Positions 919 through 60,519 of a stretch of DNA of 64,000 nucleotides are shown here, piece by piece (the first letter of the stretch is position 1; the number at the start of each line of letters is the position of its first letter). The stretch is from Armatimonadota bacterium. GTDB lineage: Bacteria; Armatimonadota; Fimbriimonadia; Fimbriimonadales; GBS-DC. Under the pieces are notes generated by a model. The model was not told the DNA's origin. It made no database searches and worked only from the letters and a program-made list of their open reading frames with translations. The stretch is taken from the NCBI GenBank assembly GCA_037445735.1, contig JBBIJY010000007.1, positions 32,001 to 96,000 of the forward strand. Direction: 5' to 3'. The translations under genes were made by a program, and so were the position numbers.

Positions 919-1364
919 TTATGAGATTGCTGCATCCAGCACGGTAATAATATCGATGCACCGCTGGAAGTCCTGAGTATTATAAAGTGAGCAGATAGCG
1001 CACCTCGTGTGCCAGCATTGTGGCGACCAATCGCGCATCGTGAACTTGCTTGCCTTGAATCCTGCGTGTGGATGCCAGATAAAACCAGATATAAGCAACA
1101 ACACCATCGCCATCCAGTAATTCCACGCTGTCCAGCAGTTCAAGCAGGTAGCCTGCCACATCCTGAACATTCCAGCCGAATCCATTAGCGCTAATGGGGC
1201 GTGTGGCAACATTCCAGAACTCGATAACAACCTGCAGCGCCAAGCAAGGTATCAGTTGGCGCTCCCTCAGGTTTTTGAATCGCAGCGACGGCTGATTGGT
1301 GAAGGGGGTCAGCAGCATTGGCAAGCCGCAACAGCACATTCGTATCAAGCAAGCATCTCTCCAT
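919..1364 (-). pseudogene. PIN-domain (VapC-like) toxin with two +1 frameshifts
   Basis: From ATG 1364: MERCLLDTNVLLR..; second frame ..VIEFWNVATRP..NGFG..HDARLVATM..LLT; third frame YNTQDF. Breaks at an A5 run (~1272-1276) and a T3 run (~984-986). Confidence 0.8.
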
Positions 1365-1651
1365 CAGTCGTACAGGTTCTCACGGCGTAAGGCTTCGTTA
1401 GAGAGCGCAGGTGCAGGCGGGCGCGGTTTGCTTGCCCACTCCAGAATGCTTGCAATCACTTCGTCGGGTGTCTTTTTGACAGTATCCAGCCCTGCTTCGG
1501 GCGAGCAGGCGTACTTCTGGCGCAGAATACCAATCAGCGTGTTCGCCTGTTCAGGCGCGTGCGCCAGCAAGCGCAGCAGCTCAGACAGCTCCTCTTCCGA
1601 AGCATTCCGCGCTATCGCTATCATCTCGCGTGCATCAACGGCGGTTATCAT
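1364..1651 (-). CDS. Putative antitoxin (VapB-like), 95 aa
   Basis: C-terminal LSNEALRRENLYD; TGATG overlap with the PIN gene; TGGTATAAT 9 nt upstream of the ATG. Confidence 0.7.
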   Translation of the reverse strand: MITAVDAREMIAIARNASEEELSELLRLLAHAPEQANTLIGILRQKYACSPEAGLDTVKKTPDEVIASILEWASKPRPPAPALSNEALRRENLYD

Positions 1652-1721
1652 CGCAGAGGTATTATACCATCCCTCTGGCGGAAGACAGCGAACCCCCATC
1701 GAACAGCCATAATTAAAGCCG

Positions 1722-2849
1722 ATGGTCTGTCCCAAGTGCTTTGCGGAGATACCTGATACGAGCGCGTTCTGCATGGAGTGCGGGGCGCGTCTGCGGGAGG
1801 ACACAATTGACCCGCTGTATGCCGAAGGCTCCGATCGGGAGGTGTACCCCGAAATCGCGCGGGCGAACCTGCTGCGCATGAAGGGCGAGTACGAGGCGGC
1901 GATCGAAGTCTGTCTGGGCATTCTGCGCCGCTACCCCAGCAACGAGACGGCGCACGCCCTGCTGGGCGATATCTATGCCGATCAGGGCAAGCTCGCCGAC
2001 GCTATCCAGTGGTACGAACTGCTGGTCGAACTGGCGCCCACCAGCGCGGTCTATCGGGCGAAGCTGGAGAATCTGCGTGCGTTGCAGGCGGCGCAGCAGG
2101 CGCAGCCAGTGATACCATCCCCAGCGATGCCGGCGAACACGGAGCCAGTGCGCCCGTCCACGCTGCGTGTGTGGGTCTACGCGCTGTTCGGTCTGCTCAT
2201 ATTGATTCTGATTGCGGCGGCGTTTGTGGCGGGGCAGCGGATGTCCTCCGCCAGCCTTGAGCCGTCAAGGGCTTCCGCTGCCAGTTCGGGCGGCATCCAG
2301 CCACCGCGCACGGCTCCTGATACAACAAACAACCTGCCAGGCATCCCGCCACCACCAGCCGAGCCATCCGACGCGCAGGGCAGCCATGAGCCGTCCAGTG
2401 CGCTCCTGCCCTTCTGTGGCATGGGCGAGACGGAGGAGCAGCTCGCACGGGCGGTCAGCCAGCAACTGGGCGGTCAGGCGGTCGCCTGCTTCTTTGAACC
2501 GCTGTTGAACCGCTGGACGGTGCGCACGCGCATTCAGGCGGGCGCGCTCACGCGGGCGCGCGTGATGCAACAGGCGTTGCTGGTCGCTGCTGCCACCTTC
2601 GCGCAGGCGCCCAGCCTGCAGAGCGCCACCGTCATCGTGCTGGTGCCGGGCACCGCTGGCTCCGACACCGCGCTCTTCTCCGCCGAGATCAGCCGCGCGA
2701 TGCTGCCGCCCGATGTGCGCACGCTCACCGACGCCCAGATCGAAACCCTCTTCCAGTCGACTCGCGTCTGGTGGAACCCCGCTGTGCCGCTGACCCCTGC
2801 TAATCCAGCAGGTCAGGCGCAGACGCCGTCGAATCCCTTCTCGCGATGA
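1722..2849 (+). CDS. Zinc-ribbon + TPR membrane-anchored protein
   Basis: CPKC..CMECG, TPR-like helices, one TM segment, Pro-rich linker. Confidence 0.8.
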   Translation: MVCPKCFAEIPDTSAFCMECGARLREDTIDPLYAEGSDREVYPEIARANLLRMKGEYEAAIEVCLGILRRYPSNETAHALLGDIYADQGKLADAIQWYELLVELAPTSAVYRAKLENLRALQAAQQAQPVIPSPAMPANTEPVRPSTLRVWVYALFGLLILILIAAAFVAGQRMSSASLEPSRASAASSGGIQPPRTAPDTTNNLPGIPPPPAEPSDAQGSHEPSSALLPFCGMGETEEQLARAVSQQLGGQAVACFFEPLLNRWTVRTRIQAGALTRARVMQQALLVAAATFAQAPSLQSATVIVLVPGTAGSDTALFSAEISRAMLPPDVRTLTDAQIETLFQSTRVWWNPAVPLTPANPAGQAQTPSNPFSR

Positions 2850-20168: not shown

Positions 20169-20990
20169 ATGCAATGGACTGATACACATTGCCATCTCAA
20201 TCACGAGCAGCTGTTTTCGGAGTGGGAGGCGGTTCTTTTTCGTGCGCAGCAGTTGGGCGTGGCGCGACTGATCGTGATTGGTTACGACCTGCCCAGCAGT
20301 GAGCGCGCCGTCCAGCTTGCCGGGCGGTCGCCCGCGCTGTGGGCAGCGGTCGGCATCCATCCGCACGACGCGCCTGCCTGCACGCCCGACGCCCTCGAAC
20401 GGCTGCGCGCGCTGAGTCAGCACCCGCGCGTGGTCGCAATCGGGGAAATCGGGCTCGATTTTTACCGTGATTGGTCGCCCCGCGAGGCACAATACGAGGC
20501 GCTTCACGCGCAACTGACGCTGGCGCAGGAGCACGGGCTGCCCGTGATCATTCACTGCCGTGAGGCGTATGACCCGCTGCTGCAGGTGCTGTCGGAATAT
20601 CCGCCGGTGCGCGGCGTGTTGCACTGCTTTTCGGGCACGGCGGCGCATGCCGAACGCGCGCTAACGATGGGCTACTATCTGGGTATCGGCGGCGTGATCA
20701 CCTTCAAAAACGCCGAGTCGCTGCGAGCGATTGCGCGCTCCATGCCGCGCGACCGCCTGCTGTTAGAAACCGATGCGCCCTATCTGGCGCCCCATCCCTA
20801 TCGGGGCAAGCGCAACGAACCCGCCTACCTGCCCCTGATTGCCCACCGTGTCGCGGAACTCTGGAGCATGCCGCTGGACGAGTTGTCGACGCAGACCGAG
20901 GCGAATGTGGACGCCTTTCTCTCAAAAACCCCCCTGAAAATTTCGGGGCAACCTGCCGATAATCGAGAGTGGCGACAGGGTACAGGTTGA
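20169..20990 (+). CDS. tatD: TatD family nuclease
   Basis: DTHCH, GIHPH, GEIGLD, IHCRE, HCF, ETDAPYL. Confidence 0.95.
   Translation: MQWTDTHCHLNHEQLFSEWEAVLFRAQQLGVARLIVIGYDLPSSERAVQLAGRSPALWAAVGIHPHDAPACTPDALERLRALSQHPRVVAIGEIGLDFYRDWSPREAQYEALHAQLTLAQEHGLPVIIHCREAYDPLLQVLSEYPPVRGVLHCFSGTAAHAERALTMGYYLGIGGVITFKNAESLRAIARSMPRDRLLLETDAPYLAPHPYRGKRNEPAYLPLIAHRVAELWSMPLDELSTQTEANVDAFLSKTPLKISGQPADNREWRQGTG
20935..20963 (+). promoter_or_regulatory. sigma28-type promoter inside the tatD 3' end
   Basis: TGAA-N16-GCCGATAAT, same geometry as the fliM promoter. Confidence 0.65.
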
Positions 20991-21074
20991 CCAGAGAACC
21001 TCCTGCTAAACTTGGTCGCACCTCCCCTACCCCGGAGAGAGGCGGGCTCCTCCCCACCCGCCTCTCACTTTTTT
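20969..21074 (+). ncRNA. Putative sigma28-dependent sRNA with anti-SD CCUCC loops
   Basis: Own promoter; hairpin GACCAG/TTGGTC; 10-bp terminator plus U-tract; three CCTCC motifs. Confidence 0.55.
21037..21074 (+). terminator. Intrinsic terminator
   Basis: GAGAGGCGGG-loop-CCCGCCTCTC followed by ACTTTTTT. Confidence 0.85.
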
Positions 21075-21076
21075 AT

Positions 21077-21111
21077 AAAAAGCCCCCTGCGGAAAAGCGT
21101 CCCGCAGGGGG
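21077..21111 (-). terminator. Intrinsic terminator, minus strand (back-to-back with the previous one)
   Basis: Minus strand CCCCCTGCGG-loop-CCGCAGGGGG-CTTTTT. Confidence 0.8.
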
Positions 21112-21243
21112 TGTGTGGCGGTGGCGCTGGACGGTGCTGATGAGAGCCGTTTCAACTACTCCGCCACCGCGGTTGCCACTCGCCATCTCGGGGCTTGACC
21201 CCGCTGCTGAGGGTATCGTGCCACTTTCGCCCGCCCGGCACTT
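21077..21243 (-). ncRNA. Putative structured ncRNA, family not recognised
   Basis: Hairpins GTGCC/GGCAC, CGGGG/CCCCG, GCGGTGGCG/CGCCACCGC; own terminator; no convincing ORF. Confidence 0.45.
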
Positions 21244-21317
21244 CTATACTCTTACGGGGATTGGCAAAAAACCGTATTCTTTGGGGGCAGGCGCGGAGCG
21301 GGTATAATCGGAACCGA

Positions 21318-21391
21318 TGCCGGGTCGTCTAAGGGCAGGACGCGGGACTTTGGATCCCGTAGTGGTGGTTCGAATCCACCCCCGGCAGCCA
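21318..21391 (+). tRNA. tRNA-Gln(TTG)
   Basis: TGCCGGG/CCCGGCA; loop CT TTG GA; CCA; GGTATAAT upstream. Confidence 0.95.
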
Positions 21392-56305: not shown

Positions 56306-58285
56306 ATGTTTCGGCTCAGTACCGAGTTCACCCCGCGTGGTGATCAGCCGGAGGCAATTGCGAAGCTGGTGGAAGGACTTCGCAAGGGCTACGATTTTCA
56401 GACTCTGCTGGGCGCAACGGGCACCGGCAAAACCTTCACGATGGCTGCTGTGATTGCGGAGGTGCAGCGCCCCGCGCTGGTAATCGCGCATAACAAAACG
56501 CTCGCCGCTCAGCTCTGTCAGGAGTTCCGTGCCTTCTTCCCTGAAAACGCTGTGCAATATTTCATCAGCTACTATGACTACTATCAACCAGAAGCCTATA
56601 TCCCTCAGACCGACACCTATATCGAGAAGACTGCCTCTATCAATGACGAGATTGATCGCCTGCGCCATGCTGCCACGCAGGCGGTGCTGGAGCGCCGCGA
56701 TGTGGTGGTGGTTGCCAGCGTGTCATGCATCTATGGGCTTGGCTCGCCCCAGGAGTACCTGCGCAGCATCGTCACGGTGAAGCGTGGCGATATTCTGAAC
56801 CCGCGCGAGCTGGCGATGCGTCTGGTGGAGTTGCAATATGTGCGTTCCGATATGGTGCTGGGGCGCGGCACCTTCCGCATTCGGGGCGATGTGATCGATG
56901 TGCAACCCGCCGATGAGGAGCTGGTGACCCGCATCGAGCTGTTCGGCGACGAGGTGGAACGCATCTACGAATATGACCCGCTCAAAGGCGAAATCATCGC
57001 TGAGCTGGAACGAGCCACCTTCTTCCCCGCCACCCACTATGTAACACCCTGGGATCGGCTTGACCAGATTATCGAGCAGATTCGCGAGGAGCTGGAGCAA
57101 CAGGTGCGCTACTTTGAGTCGCAGGGGCGCCTGCTGGAGGCACAGCGTATTCGCCAGCGCACGGAGATGGACATGGAGATGATGCGCGAGCTGGGCTACT
57201 GTAACGGCATCGAGAACTATTCGCGCTACTTCGACGGGCGCAAGCCTGGTGAACCGCCCTACACGCTGCTGGACTACTTTCCTGACGACTTTATTGTGTT
57301 CATCGACGAGTCGCACCAGACGGTGCCCCAGCTACGCGGTATGTATAACGGCGACCTGCAGCGCAAGAAGACGCTCGTGGAGTACGGTTTTCGGCTGCCC
57401 TCCGCGATGGATAACCGCCCGTTGCGCTTCGAGGAGTTTCTGGAGCGCGTGAAGCAGGTGATTTTTGTGTCGGCGACACCAGGACCATTCGAGCGCAAAG
57501 TAAGCAAGCAGATTGTGGAGCAGATTATCCGCCCGACAGGGCTGGTCGATCCCGAGATTATCGTGCGCCCGACTGCTGGGCAGATCGACGATCTGGTCAG
57601 CGAGATTCGACACCGTATCGAGCGCGACGAGCGCGTGCTGGTGACCACGCTGACCAAGAAGATGGCAGAAGACCTCACAGAGTATCTGCAGGAGCTGGGC
57701 ATTCGCGTGCAGTACCTGCACTCCGATGTGCAGACTCTGGAGCGAGCCGAGATTCTGCGCGATCTGCGGCTGGGCGTGTATGATGTGGTGGTGGGCGTGA
57801 ACCTTCTACGCGAGGGGCTTGACCTGCCCGAGGTGTCGCTGGTGGCGGTGCTGGATGCCGATAAGGAGGGGTTCCTGCGTTCTGAGACCGCCCTGATTCA
57901 GACCATCGGGCGTGCCGCTCGCAACAAGTTCGGGCAGGTGATTCTATACGCCGACCGAATCACTGGCTCGATGCAGCGTGCTATCGATGAGACCAATCGC
58001 CGCCGCCAGATTCAGCTGGAATACAATCGCCAGCATGGGATCGAGCCCGAAACGGTTCGCAAGGAGGTTCGCGAGACCGTGCGTGCCTACAGGGTGGCGG
58101 AAGAGCGTGAAGCCTATCGTGTGGTGGATACTGATCGCGTCGCCTTTGAGGATTTGCCGCTGGTTATCAACAAGCTGGAGCAGGAGATGCGTGAGGCAGC
58201 TAAAGCGCTGGAGTTCGAGCGGGCGGCGATTTTGCGCGACGAGATTCAGCGTTTACGCAGGATTCTGGAGCAGACGCGCGTATAG
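56306..58285 (+). CDS. uvrB: Excinuclease ABC subunit B
   Basis: [32 protein letters not shown] domain. Confidence 0.98.
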
Positions 58286-58347
58286 TGCGACTCCAGAAGG
58301 CAGATGTCGCTGCCGAAAATGGAGAGACTCCAGATTCGGGGCCCCTC

Positions 58348-58357
58348 TGCCGATAAT
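58348..58357 (+). promoter_or_regulatory. sigma28-type -10 box of flgM
   Basis: TGCCGATAAT about 18 nt before the riboswitch aptamer. Confidence 0.75.
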
Positions 58358-58375
58358 AGGCAGTGAAGTAAGCCG

Positions 58376-58458
58376 AGGCAGAAAAGGGCAAACCTGCAGC
58401 GATGCAGGGGCGCAAAGCCCAGGGGTCTGCCTGGAATGGCAGATAGCCGGGTTGCCTG
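58376..58458 (+). ncRNA. c-di-GMP-I (GEMM-I) riboswitch
   Basis: AGGCA..GGGCAAACC-TGCA-GCGA-TGCA-GG..CGCAAAGC..GGTCT..GATAGCCGGG-TTGCC matches the GEMM-I architecture, with a GNRA-capped P2. Confidence 0.9.
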
Positions 58459-58504
58459 TCTCCGGTTTGCTGAAACCATTCAGCAAGAGAAGGAGGCAGA
58501 AACG

Positions 58505-58792
58505 ATGCAAATCTCGCTGGAAGAGGTACGCAAGGTGGTGGCGACCTTTCATCGGAGCCATCAACAGACGAATCTGCCTCTGGAGCCTGTACCTGAACCG
58601 GTGCAGGTTTCCGAGGAGGAGAACCGTCGCCTGGCACAGGAGGTGGCGCGTGAACTCTGTGCCACTCCCGATGTGCGCGAGGAGCGTGTGAACGAACTCA
58701 AACAGCAGATGGCCACCGGCGAATACACGGTCTCTGCGGAGATGGTCACCAGCGCGATTATTCGGCGCATGCTGGCAGACCGCATCCGCTGA
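58505..58792 (+). CDS. flgM: Anti-sigma28 factor FlgM
   Basis: PDVREERVNELKQQMATGEYTVSAEMVTSAII; AAGGAGG RBS. Confidence 0.85.
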   Translation: MQISLEEVRKVVATFHRSHQQTNLPLEPVPEPVQVSEEENRRLAQEVARELCATPDVREERVNELKQQMATGEYTVSAEMVTSAIIRRMLADRIR

Positions 58793-58810
58793 ATTTGTCT
58801 GACAACTTGC

Positions 58811-58833
58811 AGGGGGACAGAAAGTGTCCCCCT
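58811..58833 (+). terminator. Hairpin after flgM
   Basis: AGGGGGACA-GAAAG-TGTCCCCCT; no immediate U-tract. Confidence 0.5.
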
Positions 58834-58859
58834 AACGCTCCATTTTTGCAGGAATTGCT

Positions 58860-59669
58860 GTGCCCGCCACGAATCCAGCTGCCGTGGCAAACGCGGGCTG
58901 GCTTCTGGCGGTTGTGAATCAGAAGGGCGGCGTCGGCAAGACCACTACCGCTGTTAATCTGGCAGCGGCTCTGGCAGCACAGGGTGATGAGGTGCTGCTG
59001 GTGGACACGGACCCGCAAATGAATGCGACCAGCGGGCTGGGTATTCCCACTGCCGAGCTGGAGTACGACCTTTTCAGCGCGCTGCAGGAGGAATGTCCCA
59101 TAGAAAAGGCGATTGTGCCCACTGGACGCGCACATCTGTATCTGATTCCCGCCAGCATCGAGCTGGCGGGGATCGATCTGCTGTTTGCCACGCGCATCGC
59201 CCGCGAAACAGTGTTGCGCACGCAGCTGAACTCCTTGCGAGAGCGCTACCAGTGGATTATCGTTGATACCCCACCTTCTCTGGGACTGCTAACAGTCAAC
59301 GCACTGGTCGCAGCAGATGGACTGATTGTGCCGCTTCAATGCGAGTATTACGCGCTGGAGGGTCTCTCGCGCCTGATGCAGACCATCGATCTGGTCAGGC
59401 AACACCTGAATCCGAGGCTTGAAATCTGGAAGGTGCTGCTGACGATGCATGATCCCCGCACGAAGCTGGCAGAGCAGGTAGAGGCAGAGGTGCGCAAGTT
59501 TTTCGGGGCAAAAGTGGCACGCACGGTGATTCCGCGTAATGTGCGTGTAGGCGAGGCGCCCAGCTATGGTCAACCCGTGGTAGAGTACGATCCCCGTTCG
59601 CGGGGGGCGATTGCATATCAGGCATTTGCACAGGAGGTGAAAGCTTATGGCGCGTCGCGGGCTGGGTAA
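58860..59669 (+). CDS. parA: Chromosome partitioning ATPase ParA/Soj
   Basis: NQKGGVGKTT, DTDPQ, DTPPSLG, EAPSYG. Confidence 0.96.
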   Translation: MPATNPAAVANAGWLLAVVNQKGGVGKTTTAVNLAAALAAQGDEVLLVDTDPQMNATSGLGIPTAELEYDLFSALQEECPIEKAIVPTGRAHLYLIPASIELAGIDLLFATRIARETVLRTQLNSLRERYQWIIVDTPPSLGLLTVNALVAADGLIVPLQCEYYALEGLSRLMQTIDLVRQHLNPRLEIWKVLLTMHDPRTKLAEQVEAEVRKFFGAKVARTVIPRNVRVGEAPSYGQPVVEYDPRSRGAIAYQAFAQEVKAYGASRAG

Positions 59670-60519
59670 AGGATTGAGCGCGTTACTCGCTCAAAGCGAG
59701 CTGGAAAGCAACATGGTTCAGGAGATTCCTGTCGAGCAGGTTCGCCCGAACCCCTATCAACCGCGCCGAACCTTTGATGAGGAGTCGTTGCGCGAGCTGG
59801 CAGAGTCGATACGGCAGGTAGGCGTTCTGCAACCGATTATTGTGCGCAAGGAAGGAGCCGAAGAATACATTCTGGTCGCTGGCGAGCGTCGCCTGCGTGC
59901 AGCACAGATGGCAGGACTGGAGCGTATTCCTGCTATTGTACGCACACCGTCCGAGCAGCAGATGCTGGAGATGGCTCTGATTGAGAACCTTCAGCGTGAA
60001 GATATTAATCCCATCGATGCAGCACTGGCTTACAGACATCTAATGGAGGAGTTTGGGTTAACCCAGGAGCAGGTAGCGCAGCGTGTCGGTAAGAGTGTGC
60101 CTGCCATCTCAAACACTCTGCGCCTGCTTCAACTGCCCCCCTATATCCAGGAGAGCATTCAGAGCGGTCTCATCAGTGAGGGGCATGGGCGTGCGCTGTT
60201 GATGGTCAAAGACCCCGTGCAGCAGCGACAGCTGTGGCAGCAGATTACCACTGATGGCTTGAGCGTGCGGGCGACAGAGCTGCGTGCGCGTGAGTTGCGA
60301 TCACCTGAACAGCCTGTTAATCCAGGTCCGCGCTCTCATCCCCTGCCCTCCGCTCCCCCGCCAGAAGTCAGGGCGCTGGAGCATAATCTGAGCGCGTATC
60401 TGGGCACAAAGGTGAAGGTGGTTTATATGGAAGGGGGGGCGGGGCGAATCGTGATCGAGTTCTACTCAGAAGAGGAACTGGGGCGGATATTGGAAACAAT
60501 TGCCCCCAGCGGGTTTTAG
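59647..60519 (+). CDS. parB: Chromosome partitioning protein ParB/Spo0J
   Basis: RGLGKGL, NPYQPR, AGERR, ENLQRED. Confidence 0.97.
   Translation: MARRGLGKGLSALLAQSELESNMVQEIPVEQVRPNPYQPRRTFDEESLRELAESIRQVGVLQPIIVRKEGAEEYILVAGERRLRAAQMAGLERIPAIVRTPSEQQMLEMALIENLQREDINPIDAALAYRHLMEEFGLTQEQVAQRVGKSVPAISNTLRLLQLPPYIQESIQSGLISEGHGRALLMVKDPVQQRQLWQQITTDGLSVRATELRARELRSPEQPVNPGPRSHPLPSAPPPEVRALEHNLSAYLGTKVKVVYMEGGAGRIVIEFYSEEELGRILETIAPSGF

Follow-up and report, generated by a model that had tools for sequence, protein, structure and literature searches.

In most bacteria a high level of cyclic di-GMP (c-di-GMP) accompanies low motility. The known routes between the messenger and motility are PilZ brakes, transcription factors, the RsiG anti-sigma factor, or a riboswitch placed on flagellar structural operons. 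FlgM inhibits the flagellar sigma factor sigma-28 by sequestering it, and flgM is itself transcribed by the sigma factor that is inhibited (sigma-28, as part of class 3, in Salmonella and sigma-D in Bacillus subtilis), an arrangement that amounts to negative feedback; to our knowledge, no riboswitch is known in the flgM leader of either organism. Here we describe the leader of a flgM gene in a 64,000-nucleotide stretch of contig JBBIJY010000007.1 (the window), which comes from a 2.78-Mb, 99.2% complete genome of an Armatimonadota bacterium and to which an earlier sequence-only reading had drawn attention. The leader carries an aptamer of the c-di-GMP-I (GEMM-I) class between a putative sigma-28-type promoter and the flgM ribosome-binding site, and it probably functions as a canonical c-di-GMP-I riboswitch that turns on the translation of flgM.

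The type members of the c-di-GMP-I family are Vc1 and Vc2 of Vibrio cholerae, and Vc1 acts positively on gbpA. In the excerpted text of PMC4744006, Vc1 is described as regulating the downstream gbpA in response to c-di-GMP, and G20, A47 and C92 are given there and in the excerpt of PMC5888326 as the nucleotides through which Vc2 contacts its ligand. The same excerpt (PMC4744006) describes Cd1 of Clostridioides difficile as a GEMM-I element that acts as an OFF switch upstream of the flgB flagellar operon, in agreement with the sequence-only reading, which had named it as a known case of GEMM-I control over flagellar genes. Flagellar structural and motor genes are listed in the accessible part of Weinberg 2007, and flgM is not among the genes listed in that part. 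A different connection between c-di-GMP and flagellar-type sigma factors is that of RsiG and sigma-WhiG in Streptomyces, where, according to the excerpt of PMC7005675, c-di-GMP silences a sigma factor of the flagellar clade by way of an anti-sigma factor.

The sequence-only reading had proposed a complete GEMM-I aptamer ahead of flgM, at 58376-58458. A search of the whole window with the Rfam covariance model RF01051 bears this out, with a plus-strand match at nearly the same place (Table 1) that scores 58.0 bits, well above the gathering score of 35 (E 9.6e-9), and that spans the model in full (positions 1-87). No other match to RF01051 was found in the genome, in which the aptamer of the flgM leader is the sole one. 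The first aptamer hairpin is capped by the loop GCGA, a GNRA loop, and the two hairpins are 98-100% paired among 25 relatives, that is, the aligned leaders of the bacterium's own family. None of these 25 leaders departs from the consensus in the blocks GGCAAA, GCAAAGCC and GCC. A G had been read at the position equivalent to G20 of Vc2, and it is present at 58387 within the consensus GGCAAA block. We take the Vc2 contacts to correspond to 58387 (G), 58414 (A) and the GCC at 58454-58456, a mapping made through the Rfam consensus; all of these positions are present here and invariant in 25/25 family members. Judged by the covariance model and by these nucleotides, there is nothing unusual about the aptamer within c-di-GMP-I.

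Evidence for the way in which the aptamer could control flgM begins with a repeat. The window contains just two copies of the 10-mer GAGGCAGAAA, at 58375-58384 and at 58493-58502, where 0.05 are expected and where none of 100 shuffled sequences held two or more. Both copies lie where the sequence-only reading had put them, one as the 5′ strand of the aptamer's P1 helix and the other over the Shine-Dalgarno (SD) sequence, and in the pairing scheme set out below the repeat is the visible trace of a P1 5′ strand that copies the ribosome site. The same reading had supposed that TTGCCT (58452-58457) pairs with either copy. The principle of one strand that can pair with either of two look-alike copies has stood; the choice of strand has not. 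The Rfam alignment places 58450-58453 in the third helix, opposite 58416-58419 (98% of these cells are paired among the 25 relatives), with the GCC as the conserved junction, and a P1 register of TTGCCT with AGGCAG is rejected by the Rfam alignment, by RNAalifold and by covariation. The predicted switching strand is instead CUGUCUCC at 58456-58463, CUGUCUC(C) in the RNA, which is complementary to 58375-58381 or to 58492-58499.

RNAalifold, run unguided on the 25 aligned leaders, closes the aptamer by a P1 of 58375-58381 with 58456-58462. Together with an extension (58367-58374 with 58464-58471) this helix reaches 15 pairs, six of which are changed on both sides among the relatives. For the counting of pairs we built an ON structure from the P1 core, the extension and both aptamer hairpins; over the 25 leaders 93.7% of its cells are paired, 10 pairs show two-sided changes, and its covariation score was reached in 0 of 500 shuffles.

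The competing partner of the switching strand is GGAGGCAG (58492-58499), which comprises the ribosome site and the bases just past it, and the predicted duplex between the two has an energy of -14.8 kcal/mol. An 8-bp hairpin lies between the strand and the ribosome site, and all three form one long interrupted helix. The sequence-only reading had seen in this hairpin a device that brings the strand next to the SD; the hairpin is present and does join the two, and its role is larger than had been supposed, in that the extended P1 ends within the hairpin's 5′ arm (58467-58471). Because the hairpin's 5′ arm doubles as P1 extension, the full P1 and the fold made of hairpin and anti-SD helix are mutually exclusive. 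Folding of the RNA 58364-58530 gave -69.6 kcal/mol for the aptamer fold, which is the minimum, and -66.7 kcal/mol for the anti-SD fold, two values that lie close together. In the 25-sequence alignment the anti-SD helix (8 pairs) has 92% of its cells paired and the hairpin helix (8 pairs) 85.9%, with three hairpin pairs changed on both sides; the OFF structure that consists of the two helices, 16 pairs, has 89.4% of its cells paired. A consensus scan of the plus strand from 58100 to 59000 found no intrinsic terminator, the platform hairpin being followed by GAGAAGGAGG, and an intrinsic terminator as the expression platform was rejected on this ground. As far as predicted pairing goes, the anatomy of the leader is that of a translational ON switch, and the shared strand, the exclusive folds and their retention in relatives agree with the ON-switch logic of the sequence-only reading.

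The mechanism that we envisage runs as follows. The flagellar sigma factor would start transcription a few bases past the -10 element, at about 58363-58365, just ahead of the extended P1. Without ligand, the switching strand would pair with the SD region, with the hairpin stacked between them, and the ribosome site would be hidden. Binding of c-di-GMP would close P1 along its core and its extension, and the closed helix would engage the anti-SD strand and, with it, the hairpin's 5′ arm, leaving the ribosome site free and allowing FlgM to be made. More FlgM would sequester sigma-28 and lower the expression of the late flagellar genes; since flgM itself is among these genes, the loop would be self-limiting. 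An ON switch on the inhibitor of sigma-28 fits the general association of c-di-GMP with low motility, and an OFF switch would not. By this route c-di-GMP probably shuts down flagellar genes by raising FlgM.

Relatives were surveyed in a sample of 61 genomes of the same order and in a phylum sample of 151 Armatimonadota genomes. RF01051 matches were found in 52 of the 61 same-order genomes, with exactly one match in all but two of them (54 in total), and 52 of the 54 matches are followed within 23-45 nucleotides by a small open reading frame (ORF) that aligns with the flgM product. The Pfam cut-off for FlgM is passed by 40 of these 52 downstream ORFs; the 12 that fail it all belong to one genus and are plainly orthologous. 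A search with an alignment of nine FlgM sequences recovered nine related loci, in metagenome-assembled genomes of Armatimonadota and Fimbriimonadales. Within the phylum sample, 72 of 151 genomes have RF01051 matches and 92 have a FlgM-like match, and at least 52 of the 92 FlgM-bearing genomes carry an RF01051 match no more than 450 nucleotides upstream on the same strand, a lower bound counted among the RF01051 matches listed. A survey of flgM leaders had been proposed in the sequence-only reading, and its outcome is that the same aptamer-flgM arrangement recurs across Armatimonadota. Two genomes of genus g14 (L002 and L004) have a second GEMM-I aptamer, of higher score (72-75 bits), ahead of a gene other than flgM.

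The switch design was scored as present where the duplex of switch strand and ribosome-site region has an energy of -10 kcal/mol or stronger. This holds for 24 of the 25 leaders of the own family (f1), for 2/3 leaders of f2, for 4/10 of f5 and for 0/1 of f4. In several genera the two partners have changed together, in L003 and L007 to ACCUCC and GGAGGU, in L030 to CUGCCC and GGGGCAG, in L020, L021 and L024 to an entirely Watson-Crick duplex, and in L005 and L006, where the hairpin is absent, to a helix of strand and site lengthened to 12 pairs. In genus g38, which belongs to another family of the phylum, the sequence is other and a P1 strand matches the bases right after the ribosome site, with energies of -12.9 to -14.6 kcal/mol at 8 of 9 loci; by these predicted duplexes the genus shares the switch design despite its different sequence. 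Four of the 13 leaders of family f3 (L032, L038, L047 and L048) instead have their complementarity to the ribosome site in the 5′ flank of the aptamer, with duplexes of -14.4 to -18.7 kcal/mol, and this looks like the same switch logic with the roles of the P1 strands swapped. In the remaining 9/13 f3 leaders neither the 3′ nor the 5′ strand reaches -14 kcal/mol in a duplex with the ribosome site.

The gene downstream of the aptamer had been read as flgM, and its product matches the Pfam family FlgM (PF04316) with E 2e-11 and 44.3 bits, against a cut-off of 25. The sigma-28-type box that had been seen upstream of the aptamer is also there, in the form of the -10 octamer GCCGATAA. The textbook -35 element of sigma-28 promoters is TAAA; the -35 here, CTCCAG, lacks it. 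The own genus (four genomes) and genera g4 and g5 (six genomes) have CTCCAG or CTCAAG at -35, and most other orthologues have CTAAAG; in most of the 52 orthologous leaders CTAAAG stands 15-16 nucleotides upstream of the -10, the -35 being read by eye. Of the 52 orthologous leaders, 21 have the octamer without a mismatch and 36 agree with it in at least seven of the eight bases in the same place; in most own-family leaders the octamer lies 20-24 nucleotides ahead of the aptamer. A relaxed version of the promoter motif has 37 matches in the genome, and 4 of the 10 downstream ORFs tested are flagellar (flagellin, rod protein, FliK and FliQ). The flagellin gene (Pfam Flagellin_N/C) is preceded by CCTAAAGA, 14 nucleotides and GCCGATAA, with a spacer nearly identical to that of the flgM promoter. 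These matches support the view that the flgM promoter is of the sigma-28 type. A search for sequencing runs that contain the stretch gave eight of DNA type and none of RNA, a result without bearing on expression. By itself the octamer is unspecific: the window holds 8 copies where 1.59 are expected, and the genome 224 where base composition predicts about 67; most genomic copies fall in coding-looking sequence, and the excess probably reflects codon usage rather than promoters.

A further sigma-28-type motif (CCTGAAAA, 14 nucleotides, GCCGATAA) was noticed elsewhere in the window, at 20933-20962, where it falls at the end of a 273-amino-acid ORF (20169-20990). It is followed by about 350 nucleotides without a convincing ORF (20963-21317), up to a tRNA at 21318-21388; this interval could be a small RNA or nothing.

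Several results weigh against a ligand-operated ON switch. In the flgM leader the aptamer fold is favoured without ligand by 2.9 kcal/mol (2.0 in the family-wide run), the anti-SD state makes up about 5% of the ensemble at 37 °C by our arithmetic from the ensemble energies, and a P1 of 15 bp is long for a ligand-dependent helix. The downstream-paired state has the lower energy in 20 of the 25 family members, as expected for a ligand-free OFF state, and the leader described here is one of the five exceptions. Covariation in the anti-SD helix is weak, with one of eight pairs changed on both sides and changes that are mostly U/C opposite an invariant G, and the number of covarying pairs in the OFF structure was matched by 87 of 500 shuffles. 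Of 540 other GGAGG ribosome sites in the genome, 105 pair with the switch strand at least as strongly, and duplex energy was rejected as a standalone statistic for that reason. Native pairs of strand and site are stronger than permuted pairs, at -10.74 against -9.57 kcal/mol (0 of 2000 permutations), a result that speaks for the design; this permutation test is, however, confounded by relatedness, kin sequences not being independent. The f3 leaders reach -10 kcal/mol in just 1 of 13 cases. With a crude SD picker, opening of the ribosome site was greater in the P1 state for only 33 of the 52 leaders.

A last point against the proposed circuit concerns the sigma factor itself, in that fliA was not found in the assembly, where the best match to TIGR02479 scores 108 bits against a cut-off of 189.6 and is a better fit to the SigB/F/G family. 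A tblastn search with the FliA of a congener gave no orthologue, and a blastn search with 3.7 kb around the congener's fliA matched nothing in the assembly. FliA is above the cut-off in 39 of 41 relatives, including 3/3 of the own genus, and the genes for flagellin, rod protein, FliK, FliQ and FlgM are present in the assembly that lacks it; an assembly gap is the likelier explanation. Because fliA is not in the assembly, the feedback loop of sigma-28 and flgM rests on the relatives.

The energetics could also be taken to mean that the aptamer binds c-di-GMP and that the platform is biased open in this bacterium, with near-constitutive translation of flgM and a riboswitch that is fine-tuning or drifting from use. 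Such a bias would accord with a minimum-energy fold that is the aptamer with its 15-bp P1, with an SD that is 63% unpaired in the unconstrained prediction, and with the place of this leader among the exceptions in its family. However, the energy gap to the anti-SD fold lies within nearest-neighbour error for a 167-nucleotide RNA, the closest relative (L011, whose FlgM is 98% identical) has the two states in the opposite order (-69.1 versus -67.9 kcal/mol), and all elements are conserved and intact; we regard an open platform as unlikely. Another account would put the main action at a different level, such as Rho-dependent termination or mRNA decay, and make the pairing at the ribosome site secondary. 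With no intrinsic terminator, Rho or RNases remain the sole transcript-level routes, and a hidden ribosome site would leave the leader open to both. The conserved complementarity nonetheless targets the ribosome site exactly and is enough for translational control, and we give this account rather little weight.

The opposite sign, in which c-di-GMP lowers FlgM, has in its favour that Cd1, the best-known flagellar GEMM-I riboswitch, is an OFF switch in the excerpt of PMC4744006, and that in family f3, where nine leaders have no such duplex and the aptamer lies only 23-33 nucleotides from the start codon, a closed P1 could conceivably mask the ribosome site sterically. In the flgM leader, however, closure of P1 would remove the sole strand that is complementary to the SD, and the hairpin 3′ arm that is freed is not complementary to it; an OFF switch would moreover raise sigma-28 activity at high c-di-GMP, contrary to the general pattern, and we hold it to be very unlikely. 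Least probable, and hardly to be expected, is a ligand other than c-di-GMP, such as 3′3′-cyclic GMP-AMP (cGAMP) or the ligand of the c-di-GMP-I-GGC variant. The clan-mate model of that variant, RF03167, gives an identical 58.0 bits under permissive thresholds, but this score is below its own cut-off of 59, and the aptamer has GCAAA, as in the canonical family, where the variant consensus is GCGAA; the GGC variant was rejected on both counts. GEMM aptamers of the cGAMP class have an A instead of a G before the GC pair, and that class was rejected in view of the G at this position. The assignment to the canonical c-di-GMP-I type, as against the GGC variant and the cGAMP type, is thus supported by model score and by diagnostic nucleotides. 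Weighed against all of these accounts, the translational ON switch on flgM is the reading that we prefer.

Table 1. Features of the flgM leader and its surroundings (window coordinates).
Feature	Position	Strand	Evidence or remark
uvrB	56306-58285	+	upstream flank of the flgM leader region
Second, weaker sigma-28-like box pair: CTCCAG, 15 nt, GCCGAAAA	58291-58319	+	regex match; directly after the uvrB stop, 37 nt upstream of the main boxes
Sigma-28-type promoter (putative): -35-like CTCCAG 58328-58333, 15-nt spacer, -10 GCCGATAA 58349-58356	58328-58356	+	
P1 5′ strand: core GAGGCAG 58375-58381 (copy of the ribosome site), extension 58367-58374	58367-58381	+	minimum-energy fold, RNAalifold consensus, covariation
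c-di-GMP-I (GEMM-I) aptamer	58377-58459	+	RF01051 match
Predicted switching strand (P1 3′ strand): core 58456-58462, extension 58464-58471	58456-58471	+	folds, RNAalifold, duplex energies
8-bp hairpin: TTGCTGAA (58467-58474) / TTCAGCAA (58479-58486), loop ACCA	58467-58486	+	no U tract 3′ of the stem
Ribosome-binding site: AGGAGG (58491-58496), then CAGAAA	58491-58502	+	fold and duplex evidence
flgM, anti-sigma-28 factor, 95 aa	58505-58792	+	Pfam PF04316 match
GC-rich 8-bp hairpin 58812-58832, T run 58843-58847	58812-58847	+	after the flgM stop; read from the sequence
parA/parB	58860-60519		Pfam match; downstream flank of flgM

The flanking genes uvrB and parAB make an unusual neighbourhood for flgM. 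The weaker box pair that follows uvrB is possibly a tandem promoter together with the boxes at 58328-58356. Beyond the flgM stop, the GC-rich hairpin with its T run may be a terminator, with which flgM would form a transcription unit of its own, flanked by uvrB and parAB; the consensus terminator scan did not call this hairpin, and its T run begins 10 nucleotides past the stem.

In favour of c-di-GMP synthesis in this bacterium, the genome has five GGDEF matches. One observation outside the window concerns a fusion protein of 428 amino acids (contig C30 (L104), 943-2229, minus strand), in which a SigB/F/G-like sigma factor with regions 2, 3 and 4 is joined to a C-terminal GGDEF domain. Its GGDEF motif has decayed to YGQAM, whereas RKAD, four residues before it, preserves an RxxD motif; the retention of RxxD beside a decayed motif suggests that the fusion may be a c-di-GMP receptor. 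The gene lies directly downstream of a PilC/GspF-like gene, and relatives have ORFs of 416-492 amino acids with the same partial match to the sigma model (positions 26-221 or 26-223), the comparison covering the sigma part only. The fusion was considered as the flagellar sigma factor and rejected, in that it fits SigB/F/G better and relatives have a separate true FliA.

With regard to the phylum as a whole, the balance tips slightly towards a FlgM-activating c-di-GMP riboswitch that is ancestral to Armatimonadota and spread throughout the phylum, and that in genomes of this order is usually the sole GEMM-I element. In such a device a P1 strand would mimic the ribosome site, with the roles of the strands swapped in some lineages, the late flagellar genes would be shut down via dosing of the anti-sigma factor, and the sigma-28 promoter would turn the whole into a ligand-gated negative feedback. 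If this is true, no shorter link from c-di-GMP to the late flagellar regulon would be known than this riboswitch at the FlgM checkpoint, which would also open a first way into the study of gene regulation in Armatimonadota, a little-studied phylum with few cultured members. The leader is about 140 nucleotides long and self-contained, which makes it testable in E. coli or in vitro, and the natural leader variants collected here are ready-made compensatory mutants. The aptamer class is already known, and so is the platform, since masking of the ribosome site by a P1 strand is standard in translational riboswitches. In our literature searches no paper had a c-di-GMP riboswitch ahead of flgM, and as far as these searches show it is flgM as the target that has not been described before.

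The flgM leader resembles Vc1 and Vc2 in its aptamer family and in the consensus nucleotides of the junction. It differs from them, with their adhesin or regulator targets, in that it would control an anti-sigma factor, in its flagellar-type promoter and in a 5′ P1 strand that copies the ribosome site. Similar to the flgM genes of Salmonella and B. subtilis as they are generally known, flgM here would be read from a promoter of the very sigma factor that its product inhibits. Cd1 acts by transcription termination, on an early flagellar operon. As the excerpted account has it, Cd1 is a c-di-GMP-I riboswitch, as the flgM leader would be, and makes flagellar gene expression depend on c-di-GMP; Cd1 is an OFF switch, whereas the flgM leader likely switches on the translation of a protein that inhibits the late sigma factor, so that an equal physiological outcome would be reached with the opposite sign and at a different node. 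In Streptomyces, in the part of the RsiG account cited above, c-di-GMP binds the anti-sigma protein itself, which is unrelated to FlgM, in an organism described there as having no FlgM; in the flgM leader, by contrast, the messenger would act through the mRNA, on the amount of FlgM that is made.

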